The notes beneath the pieces were generated by a model, which was given only the letters and a program-made list of their open reading frames with translations, had not been told where the DNA came from and did not search any database. Both the position numbers and the translations under genes were made by a program. From a virus, in the IMG/VR virus record IMGVR_UViG_3300045988_144274, positions 1 through 64,000 of that record: a DNA stretch of 64,000 nucleotides, one strand, 5' to 3'. This document shows, in pieces, positions 14,315 to 62,822 of this stretch; position 1 is the first letter of the stretch; every line of letters begins with the position of its first letter.

Positions 14315-14882
14315 TGTCTTTTTCTACTAGGTTATATTTTTTCATTAAATCTTCTTTTGTGGGGACTGAAATTTCTCGCCCACAATATTCGCATATAGAA
14401 TTGAATTTTTGATTGACAATGATAAATTGCATAATATCTTCATTGCCCGAATCCAATTTGTTATCAAGTTTATTGCGTAAATCAGCTTGCATTTTTAGAC
14501 TATCTTTCTTGTCTATTAAACCGTCATTTTCTGCTTGCTTGATTTCATCAATCAAAGCAATAATAGCTGCTTTATTTTCTTCCTTGCTTATATCTGCTTC
14601 TATCTTTGAAACGACAAGAGACTCTTTTGATTTATCTTCATCTTTTTTCTTTTGGTTACTAGCAATATACATTTTCAAGAACTCAATTTTTTTGCTTGTA
14701 TCATACTTCCTAATACTATCTTCGTCAGCATCCTTATCGAAAATAGATTTATAAGCTACAACAGAGCTGCAATATTCAAAGAATAAGATAACATACGATA
14801 TGTCTCTTACTGTCACTTCATGCTTCATCTTAGAAGCATCCTTAATTGTATTTTCTATATCTTTAACTGTCATTACGCCCAA
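14307..14882 (-). CDS. Hypothetical protein between terminase and portal (C-terminal CxxC)
   Basis: 191 aa, charged coiled coil, CEYCG motif. Overlaps both neighbours. Confidence 0.5.
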   Translation of the reverse strand: MGVMTVKDIENTIKDASKMKHEVTVRDISYVILFFEYCSSVVAYKSIFDKDADEDSIRKYDTSKKIEFLKMYIASNQKKKDEDKSKESLVVSKIEADISKEENKAAIIALIDEIKQAENDGLIDKKDSLKMQADLRNKLDNKLDSGNEDIMQFIIVNQKFNSICEYCGREISVPTKEDLMKKYNLVEKDNE

Positions 14883-16483
14883 AAACTATCGTTATAAATT
14901 TCAAGATTTGTCTCTCCGGTTTTTCTATCGTTTCTTTTGATAGAAGTTTTTTCTAGCTCATCTCCTTTTTGATATTGGAGAACAGGCAAAAATCTCATAG
15001 CTATTGGATCTAACACGTCCATTGAACGTCCTCGACCAAGCATTTGATTCATCTCTTTTTTAGATGCTAATCGTTTCCTTCCTGTCCCTTGTTCATTAAA
15101 ACGCACTACTGAACATTCTTCAACAAATTCATCAAAAACAGTAATTTCGTCTTTCATTTTTTCATGGGTATACATTTTGGAAGCAACCTTATCACTAAAA
15201 GATATGCCTTTTTCATTCACATGGTAAACAACTCTATCGTAGCATTCATCTTTTAATGTGCAGAAGGCTCTAAAATAAACACCCATAGTTTTACTATATG
15301 ATATGAAAGGTATAGCATCAGGTAAATAATCATTGATATAAGCACCATTATTGCCGTCAAATATGATATGAGTGTCGGGAATATTATATTTAGCTCCTAG
15401 TATTTGTAGTGTATTCGCATTTTGTTGTGGCGTTGAATGTCCCAATACTACAATATCTATAATGTGAAATCCATCCCATACCAATGCAACGAAATTATCT
15501 TTTCCTGTATCTGCCAAGTCAGCAGTAATCCACCTATCGCCATTAATTTGTGGGTCTGCCAATTTTATTTCACGAGCTTTATAGAATGAGATAGGTGCTT
15601 CTGAATCATCATCTTCGTCCACATTCCAATTACCTTCCAATAGTATTTGACCTCTTTTCCCACCAGATGCAGCAACACTACCAATATAATCTTTATTGTT
15701 TTCTAATGAAGCCTTGTTTTCAGAAATATTACCCAAAATAAAGGAAAAGGACTTTATAAGATTTTCGTAAGTGAATACCTCCTTACCTTTATTGACTGCA
15801 TTTAGCTTTCGATCAATATCTATTTTGCATTGTCTATAAACATCTTCTTTAGATTCACCCCATATAACAGAATCGACAGTTTCTCCTGTGACATAAAAAT
15901 ACATAACCTTTCTATCCATTTCTGGACGAATAAATCCATCTACCCCTATATAGTGTTTTAAGAAAATACGCAGCCAATGATTTTTTTTAGGATTTGTCGT
16001 ACCTCTGATTTTTGAACCGATTCCAGCTTTTCCACGATTACGAGTAATAATAGTATTGAATGTGCTCCAATCGTATGATGTCAACTCATCTAGGTATACT
16101 AAATCATATTGCCATCCTTTTACACGTTCCATCAGTTTCTTGGGATTCTCATCCGCTAAGTGCGTCAAATCTATAAATGCTTTTGATTTAAAAGTAATGC
16201 GAGGGCTGTCGGACTCTTTAACATTAGCAAATTTTCCATAAACAGCTTGTATGTCATCCAACATACCGCCTCCTACTTTTGTTTCTCCCAAGTTACGTCT
16301 AGTAAATACAGCACGAAATTCAGGTATTTTTACCCATTCCGCTACAGATAGAATTGCTCCAAAAGACTTACCACAGTTGAGAACTCCGCCATAGAAGCAG
16401 ACATCTACATTTGAACGGACAAAAGCTTCTTGTCCGCCTTCTTGTGGTTTAAATATTTTGGGTTCAACTTTTAAATCTGACAT
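14873..16483 (-). CDS. terL: Terminase large subunit
   Basis: Walker A-like FYGGVLNCGKSF, Walker B-like DLVYLDELT, 536 aa, adjacent to the portal. Confidence 0.85.
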   Translation of the reverse strand: MSDLKVEPKIFKPQEGGQEAFVRSNVDVCFYGGVLNCGKSFGAILSVAEWVKIPEFRAVFTRRNLGETKVGGGMLDDIQAVYGKFANVKESDSPRITFKSKAFIDLTHLADENPKKLMERVKGWQYDLVYLDELTSYDWSTFNTIITRNRGKAGIGSKIRGTTNPKKNHWLRIFLKHYIGVDGFIRPEMDRKVMYFYVTGETVDSVIWGESKEDVYRQCKIDIDRKLNAVNKGKEVFTYENLIKSFSFILGNISENKASLENNKDYIGSVAASGGKRGQILLEGNWNVDEDDDSEAPISFYKAREIKLADPQINGDRWITADLADTGKDNFVALVWDGFHIIDIVVLGHSTPQQNANTLQILGAKYNIPDTHIIFDGNNGAYINDYLPDAIPFISYSKTMGVYFRAFCTLKDECYDRVVYHVNEKGISFSDKVASKMYTHEKMKDEITVFDEFVEECSVVRFNEQGTGRKRLASKKEMNQMLGRGRSMDVLDPIAMRFLPVLQYQKGDELEKTSIKRNDRKTGETNLEIYNDSFWA

Positions 16484-18039: not shown

Positions 18040-19215
18040 ATGTCAAGATTCGATTTTAATAATAGTAGATATGCGGCTTTTTTCCGTAGCGGAGAAGGTC
18101 AGCAAATACTCCGTGATTATATTGATAATTCAGGAATGATTAATATCAATTATAATTGGTGGAGAAATCAATTTGCAGTTAATCCTGAAGTAACTCCTAC
18201 CGATTCTTCTGGTAAGGCTAGCTTCATGGTTCAAGCATCTGAAAATCGTGCTGCTGGTGTTTTGGATATGCGTGCTCCATTAGGTAAGGCACATCCGTAT
18301 AAAAAGGAAGGAATTTCTTTCTATACAGGAACAATCCCCGACTTTACATCAGATGCTATTGCTGAAACAGCAATGGAACGTATGTATAAGGAAAAATATT
18401 TTGCAGAATTTGGGAATGATGCTAAATTTATCAGAGAATGGACTAAAAGAGTCCAAGACTTGATTGATGCTAAAGACCAAACTGCAAATTATATGTGCGC
18501 TCAACTTCAGACAGAAGGTTATGTTAAGTATGATATTGGTCGAGGTATCAAAGGCATTAAACAAAAAGCCGCTATTCCAGAAGAAAACTTTGTAAAGGCA
18601 GGAGAAAAAGTGTGGACTGCTCCCGATGCTAAATTATTCTCTCAAATGGCAATTATTGAAGATGGATTTAGACAAAGAACAGGATTTACTGGTGCGATGA
18701 AATGGCTTATCCCAAAGAAAATGTACAGTGATGTATTTCTGCATAATGCGGAAGTCAAACAGTGGATAAACTATTTGCGTAATTTGAACACAAATAGCCC
18801 AATGGAAGCCCCAGATATTCCTGTTGTTCTGAAAAAACAATTCGATGATGCTGTTGCAGCATTTGATGGTCTTTCTCCTATCGAAATTGTAGTAGAGGAA
18901 GAAAAGAATAAGGATTGGAAAGGTGATACTACTGTTAATGGTTGGGCTGCAAACGTTGCTGTACTTCGTCCAGTCGGATATGCAGGTCTTATTATGCATA
19001 CAACTAGTTTAGACCAAGAGATGGCTAATATGGCGGGTAATAACGTTGTGTCACAGGCTTTTGCTCCAATTGATGGATTCTCGCTTATCCATAATGCTGA
19101 AATGGTAGATGGTGAATATAAGTCATGGAATACTCGTTTGATTACGTCATTTATTCCTGCTTTAACAGAGTTCCCGGAACATATTATTGTTGATACAGCA
19201 ACAGCAGATTCTTAA
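18040..19215 (+). CDS. Major capsid protein (putative)
   Basis: 391 aa. Position in the head module after the scaffold, and before the head-tail joining genes. Confidence 0.55.
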   Translation: MSRFDFNNSRYAAFFRSGEGQQILRDYIDNSGMININYNWWRNQFAVNPEVTPTDSSGKASFMVQASENRAAGVLDMRAPLGKAHPYKKEGISFYTGTIPDFTSDAIAETAMERMYKEKYFAEFGNDAKFIREWTKRVQDLIDAKDQTANYMCAQLQTEGYVKYDIGRGIKGIKQKAAIPEENFVKAGEKVWTAPDAKLFSQMAIIEDGFRQRTGFTGAMKWLIPKKMYSDVFLHNAEVKQWINYLRNLNTNSPMEAPDIPVVLKKQFDDAVAAFDGLSPIEIVVEEEKNKDWKGDTTVNGWAANVAVLRPVGYAGLIMHTTSLDQEMANMAGNNVVSQAFAPIDGFSLIHNAEMVDGEYKSWNTRLITSFIPALTEFPEHIIVDTATADS

Positions 19216-22278: not shown

Positions 22279-25200
22279 ATGGGAGCAACAGGATATGTAT
22301 TAACAATACCTGATGAGGTATTAAAGAAACTAGAATTAGCAGATACTAAAATAAATGCTATAGCTGAAAGTAGCGAAAAAACAGCAAACAGGTTCAATCA
22401 AGCATTTTCGAGCATGGCTTTATCTGTTGACCCATTGATAAAACGGCTTGATGCATTAAAAAATATAGGTAAATTAGATTTAGGGTCAGGGTTAAAAAAA
22501 TACACGAGTGATTCGGAAAAGGCTGCTGCTGGAATAGCCGAAGTTGCGAATAAGCTGAATCAATTAAAATATATATCTTCTCAATCATCGTCTGCCAATA
22601 ATTCTGTTTTGGCATGGCAAGGTATTAATGAGAACTTAAAGATACAACAACAGCGATTAGATGCAATAAATCGTTCAATCAAAGAATATGAAAACACTTT
22701 ATCTCAAATACAAAGTGGTAAGGGTGGTGTATTATCAAAAGAAGATCAGTCTAATTACGCTGCAAATCTAGCCGAAGCCGAATCAATCAAACAAACAATA
22801 GCATTATATCAACAAAAACAACAAGCGATTGTAAATTACCAGTTAGAACAAAAGAAGGTTGCTGACAATTTAGCTAAACTAAAAAGTTTAGAATCCGACT
22901 CAAAATCTTTGCCTGAACAAAGAAAACGTGAAGAATTAGAAAGATTGAATGCTTTATATAGAAGTGGTCAATCCTTACTGCAAAAACAAGCGAAGGCGGA
23001 AGATGAACTTGGTAAAGCTGCTCAAAAGGTTGCAATAGCATTAGATAAAGCTGCGAAAGCCGAAGAAAAGAAAAATAGCGCAAGAGCAAATAAGGCTAAT
23101 CAAGAAGCAGCAAGAGCCGAAGAACAATACGCAAGAGCATTAAATAAAAGCGAGGTCACTATTGTTCAACGGGCAAGAAAGATTGAAGCATTAGCTAATG
23201 CACAAAGAGCCTTAAACTCTACTGGACGAGATTACTCTTCCCAATTATCTAAAATAGCATCGGAAACACAACGGCTTCAACAAGCAAACGATAATGTTGC
23301 AAAAAGTATGGAACGAGTTAAAAGATCTCAAAGTAGTGTACTCAATACTACCGATCAATTAACTAGGAAAATAGCATTATTATTTAGCGTTTCAGCTATA
23401 CAGGGATATGTGGAAAAGCTAGTTTCTGTACGAGGAGAATTTGAACTACAGCAAAGAGCATTGCAAGCAATTTTGCAAAACAAAGATGAGGCAAACGCTT
23501 TATGGGAAAAAACAGTGGCATTAGCTGTTAAATCACCATTCCAAGTAAAAGAATTGGTAACTTATACAAAACAGCTAGCAGCATATAGAATAGAATCTGA
23601 TAAACTATATGATACAACCAAAATGCTTGCTGACGTATCAGCAGGATTAGGCGTAGATATGGGTCGTCTTATTCTTGCATACGGACAGGTTAAGGCTGCT
23701 AACTATTTACGTGCGTCAGAAGTAAGACAATTTACAGAAGCTGGTGTCGGATTGCTTCAAGAGCTTGCCACTATGTATACAGAACTAGAGGGTCGTATGG
23801 TATCTGTTGGCGAAGTCCAAGCTAGAATAACTAAACGTATGGTTGCCTTTGGTGATGTAGAAGAAGTTTTTAAACGAATTACGTCAGCAGGAGGTATATT
23901 TTATAACATGCAAGAAATCCAAGCCGAGACATTGGCAGGTATGATTTCCAATCTTAAAGATAACTTTGATGTTATGTTTAATGAGATAGGAAAGGCTAAT
24001 GATGGAGTTTTGAAAGGATTTATAAATATATTAAATACTGTAGTTGCACAATGGAGAGATTTTGCAATAGCATTAAATACCGCAGGCGCAGTTTTTGTTA
24101 CATATTCTATAAAAGCTGCAATAGCAGCAGCAGCGAATAGAAAGATTGGCGTATCGGCAATCGAAGCAATGATAGCACAAGGTGGATTAGCTAAAGCTAT
24201 TGGGTATACTACAAATGCTCTAATAAAATCATTTAATTTTGTAAAGGCAAACCCGTGGATTCTTGTAGCTACAGCTATTGCAGGAACTATCTTCTATCTA
24301 AAAGATTTAACAGAAAGACTTGACGAAACTCGTGCTACATACGATGTTTTAAATAATCAAATAGATACTCAAAAAAGCAATCTTGAATCTTTAACAAATA
24401 AAATAGAGAAGCAAGTTAAGGCACAAGAAGATGCAGAATCTTCTTTATCAAACGTAAAGAAGGGGACGCAAGAATATAAAGAAGCCGAACAAAAAGCTAA
24501 TGAAGAAAGAGAAAAAACGCAGAAACTTTTAAATATACTAAAAACGCAATATCCCGAAGTATACGCAAAGGTAATGCAGAATAAAGAAGGTATAAAATCA
24601 TTAGCATCTGAACAAAAAAAATACAATGATGAACTTGAAAGAACGCAGACCTTAAATCGCTTAATGCAAGCAGGAACTCCTTTATTTGGAGATAGTTTTA
24701 GAGAACAAGCAGAATCTTATACACAATCTTTAGATAGACAAAAAAAAGCTATCAAAAATCTAACAGGAGATTATGATTCTTTAGTAAAAGAAATCCAATT
24801 CCTATTTAAAACGGAAAAAGAAATACCAGATTCTATTAAAACACAGGTTAATTCAATAATAAATAGTAATACGACTATTGAAGAAAAAACACAGGCTCTT
24901 TTAGCATACGCTAGATCATTGGCGACGCATACTCAAACATCAAATCGTATGCTCAATAATCTAAGGATTACAGCTAAAAAATCACTTGAAGATTTAGAAG
25001 ATGCTAATAAAAATAGAGTAGTTCAAATGCAGGAGATGAACAAAAGTTATGTTTCTTTAAGAGATAACGCTCTTAAAGAAGCAAATATTACATTAGCTGA
25101 ATTTAAAGCTTTATCAAAAGAGCAACAAGAAGATTTAGGAAAGAGAATGGCAACATTTATAAAATCTTCTGCCGGGGCGGAAAGCAATTTTGCACGCTTT

Positions 25201-28080
25201 TTTTTAAAAAATAGAATAAAACAAGATTTAGGTATTAGCATTTCTTATGACGAAAAGGAAGTCGAGAAAGAAATGACCGACCTGCAAAAAAAACTATCTG
25301 AATATGTAAATGAATATAATAATAAGCCTGAAATAAAAGGGAAAAACGCTTTAAAATTGCCAATTGTTACAGCAGAAACAGATGTAGAAGAATATAGAGA
25401 TAAAATTTTTGCAGCTGGTAAAGCCTTAATTGAAGCAGCGCAGGAAAATGCCAATTCTGTTGAGAATCTTGCACCTCATATAGATAAGAATCAAAAGGTC
25501 GCAATTCAGTTAGCAAAATCAGCTGGGGAGGCTCAACAAGCTCTAGCTAAACTTTTTGGATATACGGATAAGAAAGGCGAAAAAGCCGGAGAGACAGCCT
25601 ATGAGCGTAAGATAAAGGCTCAATTAGACTTATTGAAAAAAATGCAATCTCAATATGAGAAGCTAAGACAGACAATGGGAGAAGAAGATGCTACAAGCAC
25701 TATAACTTCATCTTTTGGAACAGCTTATCAAAAATTATTCAATAAGCCATTAAAACTTAAATTTGATAAGGCTTCGATAGCTAATGAGATGGAGTCCATT
25801 TCTAATACTATTAGTGGTAAATCAGCGGAAGCATTAAAGAGAAGTTGGCAAAATACCATTGGTGAATTACGTTCAGAAATTACAGTTTCAGCAACTCTTG
25901 ATAATATCAGTGAATTTGAACGTCAAATGGACTCAATGTTTAATAGCTATCAACTGTATATCGAATTGGAGGCTAAAGGTGTTCCTAAAGATCTGATTCA
26001 AAATCTGTTTGGCATTGATGTAACTACGTTGGACGATATAGCTAGAGCGTTAGAGGAAAAATATCCCGATGTTAAAAAATTAGGAGAAAAAGAACTTGAT
26101 TCTTATTTCAAGATACAGAAAAAAATAACTGATAATCAAAAGAACGAACTTGAAAGACGTTCTGATTTATTGTATAATTATTTAGAACAATCTGTAGACA
26201 AGGTTAAACAAGTACAAAATTCAGGAGCACTTGAAATCAGCTTTGCCACTGATTTCTTCAATAAAGGAAGCTTGAATGCCGAACAATATGCGACAGTCGT
26301 TAAAAATGTCACAGAGAAAGTAAATAAGGAAGTTAGCAAGATTAATACAGATAAGTTCAAAGAAACTCCTGAATATATTCAAGCTATGGGTGACTTATCC
26401 GCTTATTCTGCTTCTCAATTAGAAGTAATGATAGCTAGAATGCAGGAACTTATAAACTCTTCTGCCGGAAATCTAAATGCATCAGATTTGAAAGTATATA
26501 CAGATTTGATAGATAAGATACAAGACAGATTAAAGCAGATTAAATCTCCGTTTAGTAAAAATGCTTTTGCAGAATTTAGAGAACTAAAAAGACTACAAGC
26601 GGAATTTAATGCAGAAACAGAAAGATATAATCAACTGTTGAGAGAGCAGAATATTGCTAAAGATAGACTTGAAAGCGCAAAAACAGAAGCCGAACAAGCT
26701 AGAGGTAGAGTTGGAATAGATGCGTCCGCAAAAGATGACCTTATAGCAGCTACAGAGAGTTTGCAAGATGCTAATAGTGCTTTAAATAATTCTAATGATA
26801 AATTGAACATTTCACAAGGTAAACTGTCTAACATATCCGGTAAAATGGGACAGATACAGGGTGGAATGAGTGCAGCCATGTCAATGATTGACAAGATAGT
26901 TACTGGTATTTACCAATCTATTGAAGCGACCATTGATATAATGAATCAATTTAAAGAACTTCAAGAATCACAAGGCGTTGATACGTCCAAAGGAGGATGG
27001 AGAGAAGCGGCACAAGCAGGAGAATTATTGGGTAATGTAAATAATAAAGTGATGTCCTCTTGGAACAATTTCAAGAGTGGCAATATTGCCGGAGCAGTAG
27101 CCGATGCGGTTGGCTCTATAACATCTATTTTCACAACATTAAATAAGCAACATGATGCTAGAAGAGAGCAAACCATTCAAGAGGAAATAAAGCAAGTAGA
27201 AAAGCTTCAAAAGGCTTATCAAAGATTAGGTGATGCAATAGAAAATGCATATACTATTGATACTCTGAATATGAGTACTGAAAATGCTCAACGTAATATT
27301 CAAGACCAAATCAAGAGCTATCAAAACATGATAGCTGCCGAAGAAGATAAGAAAGATACAGATTGGGATAGAATAGATGAATGGAAAGAAGCTATAATTG
27401 ATTTGCAAGAACAGGCAGATGAACTTAGGAGTCAAAAACTTAATGAATTAGGAGGTTTTGGTAGCGGAGCAGACATGAAATCTGCCGCAGAAGAATTTGC
27501 ATCTGCTTGGCTAGAAGCCTATAAAGAAACAGGTGATGGATTAACAGCATTAGAAGATAAATGGGATGAATATATCAATAATGTAATTATGAAACAGTTG
27601 GCTCTAAGAGGAATAGAAAAATTCTTAGAACCAATAATGAATAATCTGAATAATATGATCGGTTCGGATTCATATTTATCTGATGATGAATTAAAAGCGT
27701 TGCAGAAACAAATTGAAGAAAAGATGCCTGCTTTAAATGAGTATTTCAAAACAATATCAGAGAATTTCGGTGTACCAATTACTGGTGGAGAGGACAATGG
27801 CTCTACTCTTAACAAAGGTATTCAAGGTGTGACGGAAGAAACCGCTAATGTTATTGAAGCTTATCTTAATTCAATGAGATATTTTGTCGCAGACACCAAT
27901 ATGGTTATCAACAATTTCTTTGCTGCATTTACTAGCTTAGACCCATTGCAGAACCCAATGTACAGTGAGCTTGCAAATCAAACTAAACTTTTGAGAAGCA
28001 TAGATGATAGATTGGCAAGTGTTATTACATACAGTGGCGACCATCCTAACGGTGGGGCATCAATAAAAGTACTAACATAA
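22279..28080 (+). CDS. Tape measure protein
   Basis: 1933 aa, long coiled coils with a central hydrophobic block (FAIALNTAGAVFVTYSIKAAIAAAA...). Position after the chaperones. Confidence 0.85.
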   Translation: MGATGYVLTIPDEVLKKLELADTKINAIAESSEKTANRFNQAFSSMALSVDPLIKRLDALKNIGKLDLGSGLKKYTSDSEKAAAGIAEVANKLNQLKYISSQSSSANNSVLAWQGINENLKIQQQRLDAINRSIKEYENTLSQIQSGKGGVLSKEDQSNYAANLAEAESIKQTIALYQQKQQAIVNYQLEQKKVADNLAKLKSLESDSKSLPEQRKREELERLNALYRSGQSLLQKQAKAEDELGKAAQKVAIALDKAAKAEEKKNSARANKANQEAARAEEQYARALNKSEVTIVQRARKIEALANAQRALNSTGRDYSSQLSKIASETQRLQQANDNVAKSMERVKRSQSSVLNTTDQLTRKIALLFSVSAIQGYVEKLVSVRGEFELQQRALQAILQNKDEANALWEKTVALAVKSPFQVKELVTYTKQLAAYRIESDKLYDTTKMLADVSAGLGVDMGRLILAYGQVKAANYLRASEVRQFTEAGVGLLQELATMYTELEGRMVSVGEVQARITKRMVAFGDVEEVFKRITSAGGIFYNMQEIQAETLAGMISNLKDNFDVMFNEIGKANDGVLKGFINILNTVVAQWRDFAIALNTAGAVFVTYSIKAAIAAAANRKIGVSAIEAMIAQGGLAKAIGYTTNALIKSFNFVKANPWILVATAIAGTIFYLKDLTERLDETRATYDVLNNQIDTQKSNLESLTNKIEKQVKAQEDAESSLSNVKKGTQEYKEAEQKANEEREKTQKLLNILKTQYPEVYAKVMQNKEGIKSLASEQKKYNDELERTQTLNRLMQAGTPLFGDSFREQAESYTQSLDRQKKAIKNLTGDYDSLVKEIQFLFKTEKEIPDSIKTQVNSIINSNTTIEEKTQALLAYARSLATHTQTSNRMLNNLRITAKKSLEDLEDANKNRVVQMQEMNKSYVSLRDNALKEANITLAEFKALSKEQQEDLGKRMATFIKSSAGAESNFARFFLKNRIKQDLGISISYDEKEVEKEMTDLQKKLSEYVNEYNNKPEIKGKNALKLPIVTAETDVEEYRDKIFAAGKALIEAAQENANSVENLAPHIDKNQKVAIQLAKSAGEAQQALAKLFGYTDKKGEKAGETAYERKIKAQLDLLKKMQSQYEKLRQTMGEEDATSTITSSFGTAYQKLFNKPLKLKFDKASIANEMESISNTISGKSAEALKRSWQNTIGELRSEITVSATLDNISEFERQMDSMFNSYQLYIELEAKGVPKDLIQNLFGIDVTTLDDIARALEEKYPDVKKLGEKELDSYFKIQKKITDNQKNELERRSDLLYNYLEQSVDKVKQVQNSGALEISFATDFFNKGSLNAEQYATVVKNVTEKVNKEVSKINTDKFKETPEYIQAMGDLSAYSASQLEVMIARMQELINSSAGNLNASDLKVYTDLIDKIQDRLKQIKSPFSKNAFAEFRELKRLQAEFNAETERYNQLLREQNIAKDRLESAKTEAEQARGRVGIDASAKDDLIAATESLQDANSALNNSNDKLNISQGKLSNISGKMGQIQGGMSAAMSMIDKIVTGIYQSIEATIDIMNQFKELQESQGVDTSKGGWREAAQAGELLGNVNNKVMSSWNNFKSGNIAGAVADAVGSITSIFTTLNKQHDARREQTIQEEIKQVEKLQKAYQRLGDAIENAYTIDTLNMSTENAQRNIQDQIKSYQNMIAAEEDKKDTDWDRIDEWKEAIIDLQEQADELRSQKLNELGGFGSGADMKSAAEEFASAWLEAYKETGDGLTALEDKWDEYINNVIMKQLALRGIEKFLEPIMNNLNNMIGSDSYLSDDELKALQKQIEEKMPALNEYFKTISENFGVPITGGEDNGSTLNKGIQGVTEETANVIEAYLNSMRYFVADTNMVINNFFAAFTSLDPLQNPMYSELANQTKLLRSIDDRLASVITYSGDHPNGGASIKVLT

Positions 28081-52929: not shown

Positions 52930-53150
52930 CTTTTATTATTAAATTCGTTTACACATTGGTATTATTACTTCTTCGATTTCTCTCCATGGTACTTATTTAT
53001 GAGTCTACACAAGTATTCTCAATGGTGTCTCCACTCCACCTCTACTCACTACTTGCATATAGCTTTCGTGAGATACTTTTCTTAAAATTCCTATCGTTCC
53101 GTTAAGGTCAGCATTCAGGATTTTCCCTGTACTGCTACGGTATAGACCTC
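52930..53150 (-). ncRNA. Predicted position of the TnpB guide (omega/right-end) RNA; position inferred, not seen
   Basis: By analogy with IS200/IS605 TnpB systems, the scaffold overlaps the 3' end of tnpB and runs into the right end. Only 77 nt separate the tnpB stop from the next gene. Confidence 0.25.
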
Positions 53151-54180
53151 TCTTTATTCGTTTACCCAAGTAACTATCATGGTGACACATCTCTTCTCCG
53201 GCATAGTGGTCAACTTTAGAAGTATAGCTTTCTTCTGTTATGACTACCCTTATTCCCACTTCTTCGGATTTATACTGTATCATGGATATAAGCTTTTCAA
53301 ATGGTATGCTTACAAAGTTCTGATTGTTTCTCTTTCCCATATTACAGTTTTGCTTCCAGTCTTTATTGTTTCCTATTACAATAGTACCGATATGATGTTC
53401 TATACAATAGTTTACAATAAAACGTGATGCTTTATGCATATAGTCATTTACTTTACAATTTCTCTTTAATGTCAGCTTACCTATTCTATTACTCGTACCT
53501 CTGTTCCCTATATAGCTCATGAGTAATGATATTTTCTTGTTAAAGTATTGGTTGATGGATTTCAACGGTCTGCCATTTACGATAAAACTCTTTTGATTGA
53601 GTGAATCGTATGAAGTTACAAGATTATTCAATCCTAAATCAATACTCAAATAAGAATCCGGCTCTAGTCCGGTGGTTTCAATACTTTCCTTTTCATATAC
53701 TACTTCTATTATGTGGCAACTACATTGAGGTATAATCCTCACTTGGCACAAATTAGTCACCTTTGTTCTTAACGGTTGTATGTTCGCTTTCTTCGGGAAG
53801 TGGATGTATCCGTCATTCAACTTGCATTGTTGCGAGGTGAATACGACTATGTTCCGTCCTTTCGTCTTATGCTTGTACTTTGGAAGTTTCGGTTTTCCTT
53901 TCAACTTGTCCTTGCACTTGCACAGCTTGAAGAACGACTCCCAGTTCTTGAATAGCAACTTAACTATCTGTTGACTTGTCTGTGACGGTAGAACGATATA
54001 GTCAGCCTGTTTTTCTTTTGCAAGCCTTGTAGTAACTTCATATTCAGATAACATCTTCCCATTCTGCGTAAATTCCTGACGTATCAGATAGTTCACGTAG
54101 TTGTACAAGTTCTTGGATAAAAAGCAAAGATTATCCAAATTCTTATCTCCAATGATAATATGTCGTTCTACTCGCTGCAT
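53005..54180 (-). CDS. tnpB: TnpB (IS200/IS605-family RNA-guided nuclease, OrfB); no tnpA present
   Basis: RuvC-like triad strings SIDLGLNNL (D), ITEESYTSKVD (E), ILNADLNGTIGILRK (D). 391 aa. The GKRIKRGLYRSSTGKILNADLNG segment is typical of one TnpB subgroup. Confidence 0.8.
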   Translation of the reverse strand: MQRVERHIIIGDKNLDNLCFLSKNLYNYVNYLIRQEFTQNGKMLSEYEVTTRLAKEKQADYIVLPSQTSQQIVKLLFKNWESFFKLCKCKDKLKGKPKLPKYKHKTKGRNIVVFTSQQCKLNDGYIHFPKKANIQPLRTKVTNLCQVRIIPQCSCHIIEVVYEKESIETTGLEPDSYLSIDLGLNNLVTSYDSLNQKSFIVNGRPLKSINQYFNKKISLLMSYIGNRGTSNRIGKLTLKRNCKVNDYMHKASRFIVNYCIEHHIGTIVIGNNKDWKQNCNMGKRNNQNFVSIPFEKLISMIQYKSEEVGIRVVITEESYTSKVDHYAGEEMCHHDSYLGKRIKRGLYRSSTGKILNADLNGTIGILRKVSHESYMQVVSRGGVETPLRILV

Positions 54181-59501: not shown

Positions 59502-60068
59502 TTATTTCCATTTATCAAGATTTCCTTTCTGTATTTCTTTCTCAAATAAACTATAGGCGTCCCTTGCTTTTTCAGCTGCACTCTTTTTGATTTTAAAATC
59601 AAAATATCCATCAGTAGTATAGATTCTTACAGAAGTCATCAACTTATTTTTGAATACAGATAAATCACCTAATAACAAATACCTTATTCCCCATGAATCC
59701 ATACCTAGTGCTCCTACAGTTCCTTCACCATGTCCTGCTGCATAATCTGATATAGTAAAGATGTGTGTATTATCATCTTCATCAAGGAAAATAACTTTAG
59801 ATTCATTTCTTTTGGCTATATATACATTTATTGACATCCATTTCATCAACATCATATCTAACCCATTCTCATGTCCAAAGCATATCCATATAGTTTTCCC
59901 TAATTGTCTCCCCATTATTAATGGTTCAGAAGATATTTTCTCATAAGACGTGTACACAACTTTGTCTTTTGTGAATTTATCAGTTTTGCTAACTTTAATA
60001 CTTTGAGCTTGAATATTGATGCTAAACATCAATAATAATAGAAGTATAATATTCTGTTTCATAATCAT
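59502..60068 (-). CDS. Secreted protein (signal peptide)
   Basis: N-terminal IILLLLLMFSINIQAQS signal-like sequence. Confidence 0.55.
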   Translation of the reverse strand: MIMKQNIILLLLLMFSINIQAQSIKVSKTDKFTKDKVVYTSYEKISSEPLIMGRQLGKTIWICFGHENGLDMMLMKWMSINVYIAKRNESKVIFLDEDDNTHIFTISDYAAGHGEGTVGALGMDSWGIRYLLLGDLSVFKNKLMTSVRIYTTDGYFDFKIKKSAAEKARDAYSLFEKEIQKGNLDKWK

Positions 60069-60445
60069 TTCTTGTTACATTTAAATTTAGTGTATATTGT
60101 TTCATTATTTAAAGTGAACTGTAATTCACAATATTCCCACCATAATTCAGTTACATAACATTTAATGTACTCTTGTTCTCCTACATAAAAAGTTAGATTT
60201 CTTTTGGACAGGTGCCATGTACCTGATACATTTCCTAGATAGCCATTTGTCGAATATGAGCCATCAGGTCTGATTGTTAAAGTAATTTGTAAACTTGGAT
60301 TTTTAGAAACTCCAACCCATTCTTCATTTTGTTTTATTTGTTGCAATTTCCATGTTCCCATCAAAGCATCTTTATAAAGATTGTCTTTTGCACAACTTGT
60401 GCATAATAGAATAGTGAATACAAAAAACGGCAAATACTTTCTCAT
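60065..60445 (-). CDS. Lipocalin-like lipoprotein
   Basis: Lipobox LLCTSC followed by AKDN. GTWKL motif typical of lipocalin-like domains. Confidence 0.6.
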   Translation of the reverse strand: MRKYLPFFVFTILLCTSCAKDNLYKDALMGTWKLQQIKQNEEWVGVSKNPSLQITLTIRPDGSYSTNGYLGNVSGTWHLSKRNLTFYVGEQEYIKCYVTELWWEYCELQFTLNNETIYTKFKCNKK

Positions 60446-60453
60446 ACACTTGT

Positions 60454-60472
60454 GTTTTATTGGTTAATACTA
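60454..60472. repeat. Inner inverted repeat, left copy (18/19 match to 62444-62462)
   Basis: gttttaTtggttaatacta versus the reverse complement of tagtattaaccaTtaaaac. Ends 8 nt from the ATG of 60065..60445. Confidence 0.8.
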
Positions 60473-60514: not shown

Positions 60515-60725
60515 ATATGAAAAAGGCGTAGAGCTAATGCCTAACGCCATCGAGGGCTACCACACCCTACTCACTTATAGGCAAAAGTCTACGCCAGTAT
60601 ATGGCGTATAAACGCAATACACCCATAAGTGAGTTCCAAAATAGCCTTATTGCTGTCAATGTGGTAGTTCGATGGCGATTAGGCTATAATACGTAAAAAG
60701 CGTACCATCTATTCGATGATACGCT
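60515..60725 (-). promoter_or_regulatory. Highly structured 5' leader (riboswitch-like) of the lipoprotein operon
   Basis: Nested helices: P1 60539-60553 / 60669-60684 (15 bp, 1 bulge), P2 60557-64 / 60660-67, P3 60569-81 / 60623-34, P4 60590-95 / 60603-08. A terminator at 60520-60548 shares its 5' arm with the P1 3' strand. Confidence 0.5.
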
Positions 60726-60726
60726 G

Positions 60727-60757
60727 CAAATATAGATATAAAGTTTGATATTTCAAA
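60727..60757 (-). promoter_or_regulatory. Promoter-like TTTG-N19-TAnnTTTG on the minus strand
   Basis: The plus strand shows CAAATATA at 60727-34 and CAAA at 60754-57, with a 19-nt spacer. Confidence 0.4.
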
Positions 60758-60890
60758 TTAAAGTATTAATTATAGTTACTGATAATCTTCCTTAAAAAAT
60801 AAAGAAAATATTTTTTAATCACGTAATAAATTATACATTTGCATTGACTTTTGGAAAAGGAGCTAATAACACTTACCGTTTTTGCACCTA

Positions 60891-60927
60891 AAAAAAATGA
60901 AACCCAGTATCCTACTACTGGGTTTTT
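60891..60927. terminator. Bidirectional intrinsic terminator
   Basis: 10-bp stem aaacccagta (60900-09) / tactgggttt (60916-25), with A7 upstream and T5 downstream. Confidence 0.7.
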
Positions 60928-60990
60928 GTCTTGTAGTAGGATACAGGACATTAAACAGGCTAAAAGCCAAAAAAGGAAGGAGGTGTTATT

Positions 60991-61128
60991 ATGTCCAATT
61001 CCAAAGTCATCAATGGTAAATTATGCAAGTTGATATTTGCTAAATCTATTATTAGAAATGGTAAAACGATTTATCCAAAGAAATCTAAAGTATTCGCTTT
61101 TTGGATTCCAGTAGAGAAATCGGCTTAA
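60991..61128 (+). CDS. Small basic protein (45 aa) with a strong SD-like leader
   Basis: GGAAGGAGG lies 8 nt upstream of the ATG. The frame was checked to the TAA at 61126-28. Followed by a hairpin. Confidence 0.3.
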   Translation: MSNSKVINGKLCKLIFAKSIIRNGKTIYPKKSKVFAFWIPVEKSA

Positions 61129-61140
61129 TAATTTATCGCT

Positions 61141-61162
61141 ATGGGGTGGTAGGACACCCCAT
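61141..61162 (+). terminator. Hairpin after the small ORF
   Basis: atggggtg / caccccat stem with a weak T-run. Confidence 0.4.
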
Positions 61163-61182
61163 ATTTAATCATAGCATTACCG

Positions 61183-61374
61183 TTACTCCTTCTTCTTTTC
61201 CTCCTTGTCTTTATCTTTCTCATCTTCAACTTGATCCGGTGTTTTCCCTTCCGCAATGTGCGCCATCTTTCGGAGCAGTTCATCGAACTGTTCTTTAGGA
61301 ACAGAAAAGTTAATCTCTAACCTCACTGTTTTAATGTTACTTAGGTCTATTTCTTGTTTCTTTTTCTTTCCCAT
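61183..61374 (-). CDS. Small Lys/Glu/Asp-rich protein downstream of the transposase
   Basis: Starts 3 nt after the transposase stop. Confidence 0.45.
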   Translation of the reverse strand: MGKKKKQEIDLSNIKTVRLEINFSVPKEQFDELLRKMAHIAEGKTPDQVEDEKDKDKEEKKKE

Positions 61375-61376
61375 AA

Positions 61377-62279
61377 CTAAGCTGCATTACGCAAAAGTAA
61401 ATTAAATCTTTGAGAATCGGTAAAATTTCGAGTATTAAATCGGAAAATATATTCGTCAATATACCTCTGCATATATTTTTTGCTTACATGATAGTATATC
61501 CCAAATATCATTCTCTTGAAATGCGACCACACATTTTCGATACCGTTCGTACTAACAACGATTATCTCACCTTCATCTGTTGCATAGGTCGTACCATAGA
61601 AATGTTTTTCATGGTCTACTGACCTTTGTACATACTTCCCATGCAGTCCACTGTAATCCCAACCATCAGTATAAACAACACTACCTAATTCAACTTTTTC
61701 TTTGATAATCGGAACTATAGTTTTAGCTTGTGTATTGGGAACAACTTTGGCAATAACCTTACCACCTCTTTCAAGTATTCCGAATACAGGAACTTTATCC
61801 TTATAACTACGTCCTTGACATTTCTCTACTTTCTTATCCTTATGTCTATTTTTATTCTTCCCACCTACAAACGCTTCATCAATTTCAACCTCACCGGATA
61901 AAGTATGGCTATTCTCCATCTCCATATATTGTCTAATCTTATGGAGCATCTTCCACGCTGTTTTTTGAGTTATACCTAAATCTCTCGCTAATTGACATGA
62001 TGAAACACCTCTCTTATGTGACAAGAATAACATCATAGCATAAAACCATGCTTTCATAGGCAGTTTAGTATTGGCAAATGCAGTACCAGTTTTAACATCA
62101 AAGTATCTTCCAGTATTCTTGCATTTATACTTACCATTACCACATTTATAAACCTTAGAATTGCTGTCATAAGGCGAAATGACTTCATCTCCCCATCGCA
62201 TCTTCTCAAAATATCTGATGCAACTTTCTTCATCAGGAAAGTTTTCAGATAGAGTTAAAAGAGTAAAATCGGTTTTCAT
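61377..62279 (-). CDS. IS1595-family (ISXO2-like) DDE transposase
   Basis: N-terminal zinc ribbon (YKCGNGKYKCKNTGRYFDVKTGTAF) followed by HTH (SSCQLARDLGITQKTAWKMLHKIR), then EVEIDEAFVGGK and YTDGW DDE-domain strings. Confidence 0.85.
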   Translation of the reverse strand: MKTDFTLLTLSENFPDEESCIRYFEKMRWGDEVISPYDSNSKVYKCGNGKYKCKNTGRYFDVKTGTAFANTKLPMKAWFYAMMLFLSHKRGVSSCQLARDLGITQKTAWKMLHKIRQYMEMENSHTLSGEVEIDEAFVGGKNKNRHKDKKVEKCQGRSYKDKVPVFGILERGGKVIAKVVPNTQAKTIVPIIKEKVELGSVVYTDGWDYSGLHGKYVQRSVDHEKHFYGTTYATDEGEIIVVSTNGIENVWSHFKRMIFGIYYHVSKKYMQRYIDEYIFRFNTRNFTDSQRFNLLLRNAA

Positions 62280-62431
62280 AACGTCAAATTTTTAGCTATC
62301 CAAATATACTAAAAATCAACGATATTAGCAAGCCATTTGCAATATATTTTCAAGGAAGTTTTTCGCAAGAATGCTAAAGAACATTCTTATACAACATATA
62401 GAGCAATGTACTGCTTACAAACTATAAACAG

Positions 62432-62439
62432 TACATTTG
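62432..62439 (+). promoter_or_regulatory. TAnnTTTG box upstream of the KTSC gene
   Basis: TACATTTG. No clear TTTG at -33. Confidence 0.3.
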
Positions 62440-62443
62440 CGAC

Positions 62444-62462
62444 TAGTATTAACCATTAAAAC
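62444..62462. repeat. Inner inverted repeat, right copy
   Basis: See 60454-60472. Ends 8 nt from the ATG of 62471..62662. Confidence 0.8.
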
Positions 62463-62470
62463 GACAAAAT

Positions 62471-62662
62471 ATGATACCTATTGCATCCTCTGCATTTCTC
62501 GGAGTAGATTATAATTCCGAAACAAGAGCTTTAACAGTATATTTTAGAGATGGAAGAAATTACACTCATCATGGAGTGCCAGAATCAGTATACAAACAAT
62601 TTCTTAACGCTCCTTCAAAGGGCAAGTTTTACAATCAGTACATAAAAGGGATTTATCAATAG
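62471..62662 (+). CDS. KTSC domain protein
   Basis: GVDYNSETRALTVYFRDGRNYTHHGVPESVYKQFLNAPSKGKFYNQYIK matches the KTSC domain pattern. Confidence 0.7.
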   Translation: MIPIASSAFLGVDYNSETRALTVYFRDGRNYTHHGVPESVYKQFLNAPSKGKFYNQYIKGIYQ

Positions 62663-62822
62663 GTTTTAATTGCCAAGCATTTTCCCTAATCCAATCAATA
62701 TCTACCTCATGTGGGTCACGGTCTATAGCCCATGCTCCACATGAGGTATCATAAAACTCTCTTAATTGTTCATACGTAAGCTCATTTTTTACTTTTTTTT
62801 CTTCTTCAATTTTCTTTTCCAT
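62604..62822 (-). CDS. Hypothetical protein (3' end overlaps the KTSC gene convergently by 59 nt)
   Basis: 72-aa ORF. The first gene inside the right end of the transposon. Confidence 0.4.
   Translation of the reverse strand: MEKKIEEEKKVKNELTYEQLREFYDTSCGAWAIDRDPHEVDIDWIRENAWQLKPIDKSLLCTDCKTCPLKER

Follow-up and report, generated by a model that had tools for sequence, protein, structure and literature searches.

The window analysed here, a 64,000-nucleotide (nt) stretch of viral DNA (positions 1 to 64,000 of IMG/VR record IMGVR_UViG_3300045988_144274), carries at positions 60515-60757 a single copy of a structured leader element that is read from the minus strand and precedes a gene for a lipocalin-like lipoprotein. 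The leader belongs to a real and previously uncatalogued RNA family, and it probably controls transcription of the variable gene that follows, which encodes a surface or exported protein. The lipoprotein gene in the window (60065-60445, minus strand) was taken from the list of open reading frames (ORFs); its product of 126 amino acids begins with MRKYLPFFVFTILLCTSC and matches Pfam Lipocalin_4 with an E value of 1.8e-05, and its start codon ATG lies at 60445. On the other side of the leader, a minus-strand promoter of the Bacteroidetes type (60727-60757) consists of a −33 element TTTG (60757-60754), a 19-nt spacer and the −7 box TATATTTG (60734-60727). It is followed on the same strand by a terminator-like hairpin of 11 base pairs (bp) with a U5 tract (60695-60725). 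A structured 5′ leader with its own promoter had been proposed for the minus strand in a sequence-only reading of the window, and the coordinates given there for helices, promoter and terminator all proved correct when the region was read on that strand. The region is also GC-rich, as had been stated, with a G+C content of 0.425 compared with 0.25-0.33 in the flanks.

The leader proper is described here as minus-strand RNA with window coordinates. Segment a (AUAGCCU, 60681-60687) can pair with segment a′ (AGGCUAU, 60641-60647), which lies inside a 25-nt asymmetric junction, and this pairing crosses helices P1 and P2. Segment b (AAUCGCCAUCGA, 60669-60680) is the 5′ strand of P1 and segment b′ (UCGAUGGCGUU, 60543-60553) the 3′ strand; the last bases of b′ are the 5′ arm of the terminator. 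In the sequence-only reading P1 had been drawn as GCCUAAUCGCCAUCGA (60684-60669) with UCGAUGGCGUUAGGC (60553-60539). P2 joins segment c (CUACCACA, 60667-60660) to UGUGGUAG (60564-60557), and the latter strand, segment c′, is also the loop of a hairpin H (60553-60568) with the stem AGGG (60568-60565) and CCCU (60556-60553). The P3-P4 domain (60569-60635) is a long imperfect hairpin of variable sequence in which P3 pairs 60634-60623 with 60581-60569 and P4 pairs UACGCC (60608-60603) with GGCGUA (60595-60590). Segment e′ (GGCGUAGAC, 60586-60595) comprises the 3′ strand of P4 with the bases that follow it and is complementary to the loop and 3′ arm of the terminator. The intrinsic terminator (60520-60548) reads GGCGU-UA-GGC-AUUA-GCU-CU-ACGCC, that is GGCGUUAGG...CUCUACGCC at 60548-60525, with U5 at 60524-60520, and its local fold has a calculated energy of −10.8 kcal/mol. 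The helices listed by the sequence-only reading all stood, but the set was incomplete in that hairpin H and the pairing of e′ with the terminator 3′ arm had been overlooked.

Folding of the minus-strand RNA gave −92.7 kcal/mol, compared with −57.6 ± 4.4 kcal/mol for 200 shuffled sequences (z = −7.95). The plus strand was likewise stable (z = −7.6), as expected of any inverted repeat. Since both strands fold well, the fold alone cannot separate an RNA from a DNA palindrome, nor one strand from the other. Wobble pairs are more informative here: across the homologues 336 cells held G-U or U-G and 41 held A-C or C-A, an asymmetry that points to an RNA read from the minus strand of the window.

Copies of the leader were found by pattern scans and confirmed with profile and covariance-model searches. 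The family, with at least about 200 members, is spread over Bacteroidales of the gut and their phages. With a pattern of 22 bases taken from the 3′ half of the motif, at least 120 metagenome contigs were matched, nearly all from the human gut. A second pattern, applied to species-representative genomes, identified about 64 genuine copies, in Alistipes, Tidjanibacter, Rikenellaceae, Bacteroidaceae, Muribaculaceae, Prevotella and Flavobacteriales; genomes of Bacteroides sp. f07, B. caecimuris and B. hominis were among those matched. GC-rich matches from this genome scan were due to chance and were set aside. Phage relatives occur on one unannotated phage fragment (MT838557) and on seven IMG/VR contigs; in the isolate phage and plasmid collections MT838557 was the only match, with none among plasmids. 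At 90% identity the sequences form 34 clusters. A covariance model (R1) built from eight phage-type sequences scored all 102 sequences searched at 50-201 bits, with 200.9 bits for the window (60519-60690). The most divergent member, at 49.7 bits, is the second of two copies on a Bacteroidaceae contig (L179). In some contigs of this family two leaders are found 2.6-4.3 kb apart, each preceding its own exported-protein gene (300-460 and 4651-4810 in L157; 3002-3162 and 5598-5752 in L179).

To assess base pairing we used the covariance-model alignment, with 99 distinct rows, together with anchored duplex tests that included shuffle and cross-sequence controls. The covariance-model alignment was chosen because MAFFT combined with RNAalifold left P3 and P4 unaligned in the 34 diverse sequences. 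In the 99 sequences 92.1% of cells were paired, against 79.7% after shuffling and 30-47% when the partners were slid along each other. Both sides changed in 34 of the 47 pairs, and none of 500 shuffles reached the observed covariation score. P1, P2 and P3 were each supported. For P1, 98.7% of cells were paired and four of eight pairs covaried. Two relatives (L245 and L247) have a wholly different P1, CUGCUCACAG:UUGUGAGCAG instead of AUCGCCAUCGA:UCGAUGGCGU, that is still paired, and the divergent second copy on L179 has CGCCUCUG:CAGGAGGCG at this place; P1 is thus free to change provided that pairing is kept. The search patterns had fixed most of the P1 and P2 cores, and L245 and L247 were recovered by a scan in which P1 was left free. 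P2 was paired in 99.9% of cells and covaried at two positions, with CU:AG replaced by UC:GA in about half of the sequences. In P3 all 15 pairs changed on both sides and 89.5% of cells were paired, and the P3-P4 stretch folded as a hairpin in every representative.

The pairing of a with a′, which had been suggested earlier as an alternative for AUAGCCU and AGGCUAU, is also conserved. The duplex was present in all 34 representatives with a mean energy of −8.8 kcal/mol compared with −4.1 kcal/mol for shuffled partners, and six of its seven pairs changed on both sides, giving variants such as AGCCU:AGGCU, UGCCU:AGGCA, UUGCUC:GAGCAA, GCCC:GGGC and UUAGCCA:UGGCUAA. The outer six pairs of P1 as drawn in the sequence-only reading (GCCUAA:UUAGGC) are not conserved in the family. 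The sequence concerned belongs to segment a and pairs with the junction instead. Hairpin H is found in all 102 aligned copies as a stem of 3-6 bp that shows the P2 3′ strand UGUGGUAG as its loop. The stem sequence varies widely (AGGG:CCCU, GAGG:CCUC, GAGA:UCUC, GGGA:UCCC, AGGC:GCCU, GGCU:AGCC, GGUU:AACC), and this covariation is not explained by a rod model of the RNA.

The terminator stem was paired in 87.3% of cells in the same 99 sequences. Its 5′ arm is the 3′ strand of P1, as had been claimed, and both helices covary at a common position: where the terminator changes from G-C to A-U, the P1 pair that uses the same base changes in step. The Alistipes subtype has a canonical terminator, GCGUGCA-N7-UGCACGC-U7. 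The 3′ side of the terminator has a competitor of its own, since a complement of 8-10 bp between e′ and the terminator loop and 3′ arm (e′:T3′) was found in 120 of 124 unique sequences. The mean duplex energy was −12.1 kcal/mol, compared with −6.6 kcal/mol after shuffling and −8.4 kcal/mol when strands were combined across sequences; seven of ten pairs covaried and 91% of cells were paired. Different versions of this pairing include GACGUGGUGC:GCACUACGUC, GCGUGUGCUU:AAGUGCACGC, GCGUAAGAC:GUCUUACGC and CGUAGGGUU:AGCCCUACG.

In 150 of 156 distinct contexts an exact TAnnTTTG was found no more than 100 nt upstream of the motif, and the spacing between the −7 box and the core fell into classes of 22-23, 50-55 and 62-68 nt. 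Between the U-run and the downstream ORF the same sequence occurred in 8 of the 156 contexts only. The sequence of the 5′ hairpin with U5 at 60695-60725 varies from one phage subtype to another, with unrelated hairpins in its place in L012, L003 and L064; the chromosomal, Alistipes-type subtype has no such hairpin. This hairpin may terminate the transposase unit that lies upstream, with the start of the leader transcript falling within its 5′ arm. In relatives that lack a 415-nt stretch present in the window (see below) the hairpin is located about 70 nt past the stop codon of the upstream ORF of 63 amino acids.

The family thus combines a conserved structured leader between a promoter and an ORF with an intrinsic terminator that shares its 5′ arm with P1 and its 3′ arm with e′:T3′. 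We consider a cis-acting, regulated terminator/antiterminator leader that controls read-through into the following gene the best explanation, with a probability of about 0.6. Two folds can be drawn. The termination fold would consist of four successive local hairpins, namely a:a′, P3-P4, H and the terminator with its U-run, with b and c lying in the a:a′ loop and c′ in the loop of H. In the read-through fold b would pair with b′ to form P1, removing the 5′ arm of the terminator; c would pair with the loop of H to form P2, possibly starting as a loop-loop kiss; and e′ would leave P4 and act as a second antiterminator strand by pairing with the terminator loop and 3′ arm. The choice might be kinetic. 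The local hairpins would form first, after which b and c would race to capture b′ and c′ until polymerase leaves the U-run, and e′ could begin to pair with the terminator loop before the 3′ arm has been made. From this arrangement we infer that the choice of fold is regulated and that an effector shifts the balance, and the ON polarity proposed in the sequence-only reading is likewise conjectural; candidate effectors are a small molecule, a protein, another RNA, temperature and polymerase speed.

Energy calculations are consistent with such a sequence of events. When minimum free energy (MFE) folds were computed for growing transcripts, a:a′ was present in 34 of 34 representatives, and a:a′ together with H in 27 of 34 just before the appearance of b′. 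At full length the MFE structure contained P1 and P2 in 32 of the 34, and the state in which the terminator was forced exceeded the minimum by a mean of 6.4 kcal/mol. In the case of the window RNA, the termination fold was calculated at −61.4 kcal/mol and the rod at −71.3 kcal/mol, or about −78.6 kcal/mol with e′:T3′ added and no pseudoknot penalty applied.

The same energies would fit a static pseudoknotted 5′ untranslated region that stabilizes or processes the mRNA, with the terminator acting as a leaky or constitutive attenuator that sets the level of expression. The long-range fold has the lowest energy in 32 of the 34 representatives, and by steric reasoning all helices except the terminator and P4 could coexist. 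However, the terminator excludes both P1 (through GGCG) and e′:T3′ (through the 3′ arm), and P4 excludes e′:T3′ (through e′). In spite of this competition, conservation with covariation is seen both for the terminator stem and for P4. Selection for both members of mutually exclusive pairs is hard to explain without switching, which makes a static leader improbable in our view.

Several points weigh against a regulated terminator. Apart from the exclusions just mentioned, the helices could coexist in one pseudoknotted fold. The terminator of the window subtype is weak (5 + 3 bp, U5). The transcription start, the 3′ end near 60520 and read-through are predictions. That the cores of P1 and P2 hardly vary is largely a product of the search patterns, the shuffle control for covariation takes no account of kinship among the sequences, and the collection of homologues and their alignments may contain hidden errors. 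Finally, the genes that would be regulated have no common pathway that points to a ligand or binding protein.

The genes behind the leader are accessory and interchangeable. A same-strand ORF of at least 40 codons starts within 300 nt of the U-run in 186 of 195 copies, and at about 80 nt or less in 180 of these 186. The encoded proteins fall into 41 unrelated families, mostly lipoproteins, secreted proteins or membrane proteins. An N-terminal signal or membrane segment was recognized by a crude hydrophobicity rule in 28 of the 41 clusters; the two largest clusters, which begin with MKKLKLLSLLVLLGFNSC and MCNKFFVIISVFAIICSC, were overlooked by this rule. When ten of these proteins were compared with Pfam, only DUF4352 and GIY-YIG were recognized. 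In the window the lipoprotein gene is followed by 59502-60068, the gene for a 188-residue protein with a signal peptide, and then by that of a Bro-N protein. In three close relatives (L001, L003 and L010) the lipoprotein gene is missing and the leader adjoins the homologue of 59502-60068, which shows the cargo to be exchangeable. A lipoprotein operon, which the sequence-only reading had named as the partner of the leader, is therefore not its constant partner. The chromosomal copies are single units of leader plus gene amid housekeeping genes. In six Bacteroides loci, including L232, L150 and L163, a divergent gene judged by eye to be Panacea/SocA-like (DUF4065-type) is found about 110-670 nt upstream of the leader.

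This diversity bears on whether the leader could be a true riboswitch for a small molecule or ion, which would be a special case of the regulated terminator. The pseudoknotted core (a:a′, the kiss of P2 and H, and linker adenosines) would then be the aptamer, and the ligand would decide whether b forms P1. The size, the multiple pseudoknots and the covariation are typical of aptamers, the expression platform overlaps the terminator, adenosines are conserved in the a-b and b-c linkers, and the distribution across Bacteroidales families is wide. The junction loops, however, are poorly conserved in sequence, and the regulated genes, 41 unrelated and mostly unannotated exported proteins, show no transporter or biosynthetic theme. 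A ligand-binding riboswitch is thus conceivable but rather doubtful. A leader peptide was rejected as the AUG within P3 of the window is not conserved.

Alternatively, the product could be a stand-alone, trans-acting small RNA (sRNA), a terminated transcript of about 175-205 nt, with read-through being incidental. Such an sRNA might act by antisense or kissing-loop pairing on other copies of the family or on other targets, like C4 of phages P1 and P7. The leader is preceded by a promoter of its own and, in the Alistipes subtype, ends in a strong canonical terminator, and both the conserved 8-nt loop UGUGGUAG on a 4-bp G/C stem and the single-stranded b-c stretch of about 20 nt in a large loop are typical of antisense recognition elements. 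The box that precedes the start codon includes, in some variants, the sequence ACCACA, which is complementary to the loop of H, and there is a weak similarity over H to the Rfam family c4-a1b1 (16.3 bits, E = 0.05 in a search with 181 nt; 10.7 bits in a search with the window). That score is far below the gathering score of 46.7, though. Moreover, the downstream ORF almost never has a promoter of its own, and its start, on the same strand, is 0-80 nt from the U-run, as expected for a leader; every complementary partner is present in cis, and the wholesale change of P1 in L245 and L247 along with its cis partner is better explained by pairing in cis than by a common code for action in trans. 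We therefore regard a trans-acting sRNA as unlikely, and the regulated cis-acting terminator as the better account of these features.

Comparison with known systems did not assign the leader to an existing class. With Rfam 15 at gathering thresholds no match was found in the window and none at the motif in 14 homologous genome loci, in agreement with the earlier statement that no known riboswitch class applies. Relaxed thresholds gave only chance-level matches in the window and the homologous loci, apart from the weak c4-a1b1 resemblance, and a description of the leader motif was not found in the literature. In some transcriptional riboswitches and attenuators, such as the adenine ON-switch of pbuE, a single segment forms both the 3′ strand of P1 and the 5′ terminator arm. 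The leader family shares with these a promoter-proximal position, mutually exclusive P1 and terminator helices, a U-run and an ORF that follows. Unlike pbuE-type switches it has no Rfam match, a separate strand competes for each side of the terminator (b for the 5′ arm, e′ for the loop and 3′ arm), at least two pairings cross (a:a′ and H/P2), and unrelated accessory exported genes follow instead of the genes of one pathway.

C4 of phages P1 and P7 (Rfam clan CL00128, with C4, c4-2 and c4-a1b1) blocks translation of icd, with Rho-dependent polarity. Like C4, the window RNA is phage-borne, lies within the leader of the genes it would control and shows short complementary elements in loops. The c4-a1b1 (RF03163) consensus CGGG-UUUGGCAG-CCCG resembles AGGG-UGUGGUAG-CCCU, each with a 4-bp G/C stem and an 8-nt loop. 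The partners in the leader family are in cis, however, where they compete with an intrinsic terminator, and the family is mostly chromosomal in Bacteroidales. Membership of the C4 clan was rejected on the scores of 10.7-16.3 bits against a gathering score of 46.7, with no C4 or c4-2 match anywhere in the window. The resemblance is a lead on mechanism, namely antisense elements displayed in loops of a phage leader, and not a sign of membership.

Two further kinds of RNA resemble the leader in part. In cobalamin-class riboswitches a kissing loop between aptamer and expression platform controls the output, and Bacteroides uses switches of this class before surface lipoprotein genes. The leader likewise has a hairpin loop in its 3′ part that pairs with a loop in its 5′ part, but there is no B12 box, no match to the Rfam Cobalamin or AdoCbl-variant families at E ≤ 10, and the architecture is different. 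The put RNA of HK022 and EAR mediate processive antitermination in phages. As with put and EAR, a structured RNA directly follows a phage promoter and precedes a terminator; the leader RNA differs in that it pairs with the terminator arms itself, so that modification of polymerase is not needed, and has no similarity to them in sequence or structure.

Fremin and Bhatt (2021, PMC8040213) listed HMP2_4205 and HMP2_4078, unnamed palindromic motifs of Bacteroidetes of 109-132 bp with no described mechanism. Sequences of the leader family were not found in the 200 searchable supplementary files, and HMP2_4205 and HMP2_4078 are at most possible counterparts. The rAID-1 immunity-gene arrays (bioRxiv 10.1101/471110) have integron-like repeats between every gene and lie beside a XerD-type recombinase. 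The leader was rejected as such a repeat: there are at most two copies per locus and no recurrent recombinase in the neighbourhoods. Bacteroides fragilis and the other rAID-1 hosts named in that work were not among the genome matches listed.

The window belongs to a tailed phage, whose tape-measure protein is encoded at 22279-28080, large terminase at 14873-16483 and major head protein at 18040-19215; its G+C content is about 30%, and its promoters are of the Bacteroidetes type. A scan of the window for tRNA and tmRNA genes gave none. Upstream of the leader on the minus strand lies a gene for an IS1595-family DDE transposase (61377-62279; Pfam E = 1e-42), and between the two is an ORF encoding 63 amino acids rich in Lys and Glu (61183-61374, minus strand). 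This pair is syntenic with the leader in 91 of 106 related metagenome loci, upstream and on the same strand; this synteny does not extend to the chromosomal copies. Terminal inverted repeats or a target duplication were not found for the transposase gene, and given this it may be domesticated. A second transposase-like gene in the window (53005-54180, minus strand, 391 amino acids) matches PHROG 506 with E = 2e-49. Upstream of the IS1595-family gene, in or beside small ORFs, there is a palindrome (62703-62748) with a perfect centre and abutting 23-nt arms that are 83% complementary. The stretch 60766-61180 (about 415 nt) is missing from the closest relatives, L007 and L009. It contains a plus-strand ORF of 45 codons (60991-61128) with GGAGG 7 nt before the ATG, an uncommon feature in Bacteroidetes, as well as a bidirectional terminator (60899-60926).

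The proximity of the transposase gene raises the question whether the element acts at the level of DNA, as a recombination site, or serves as a guide RNA of this enzyme. Besides the synteny in the metagenome loci, a relative of the gene is no more than 4 kb away in 11 of 64 genome loci, its orientation varying. Against this, 53 of the 64 genome copies have no such gene nearby, and no copy of the RNA accompanies the close transposase homologues of L008 (97%), L013 and L014. The 19-nt inverted repeats that flank the region each lie 8 nt before a start codon and show no target duplication, and the G-U asymmetry, promoter and terminator all indicate an RNA made from one strand. We consider a link to the transposase very improbable; a transposase-associated guide RNA of the bridge RNA, omega RNA or seekRNA kind was rejected as the linkage is not obligatory.

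The inverted repeats are two copies of a conserved box that precedes start codons. The minus-strand copy, UAGUAUUAACCAAUAAAAC at 60454-60472, lies 8 nt before the lipoprotein start codon with its core UUAACC at −22, and is identical in relatives that are otherwise only 68% identical. Its plus-strand twin at 62444-62462 (the 19-nt sequence reads UAGUAUUAACCAWUAAAAC) lies 8 nt before the ATG at 62471 of a gene for a KTSC-domain protein and directly after a canonical −7 box TACATTTG (62431-62438). The two boxes thus precede two divergent start codons, at 60445 and 62471. As ends of an insertion sequence these repeats were rejected, given their position 8 nt before start codons, the different 8-mers flanking them and the lack of a target duplication. 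A box UUAACY or UUUACC at −21 to −24 from the start codon was present in 51 of 102 ORFs behind the leader family, compared with 27 of 691 other ORFs in the same loci. The box may act as a signal in translation or processing; alternatively, the H loop may have it as a second target.

Bacteroidales are the dominant bacteria of the human gut, yet apart from the common riboswitches only a few cis-regulatory RNAs are known in them. The family described here is abundant, occurs on chromosomes and phages, and brings its own promoter and terminator to a position before a variable gene, usually one for a surface or exported protein. Its design is unusual: the two arms of the terminator are each opposed by a separate antiterminator strand, and one of the P2 strands is the loop of a hairpin. 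At about 170 nt it is compact enough for use as an engineering part in Bacteroides. Tentatively, it may represent a new class of RNA switch of Bacteroidales and their phages, either a riboswitch for some signal or a self-contained kinetic switch based on a loop kiss, that governs exported proteins. If so, a large and fast-evolving set of surface and exported proteins, including phage 'moron' genes, would be under the control of a common regulatory plug for newly acquired surface genes. Genes of this class decide how strains compete, whether phages can infect them and how the immune system recognizes them. Should the switch answer a signal, the identity of that signal would show by what means the timing of accessory surface protein display is set in these bacteria and their prophages.

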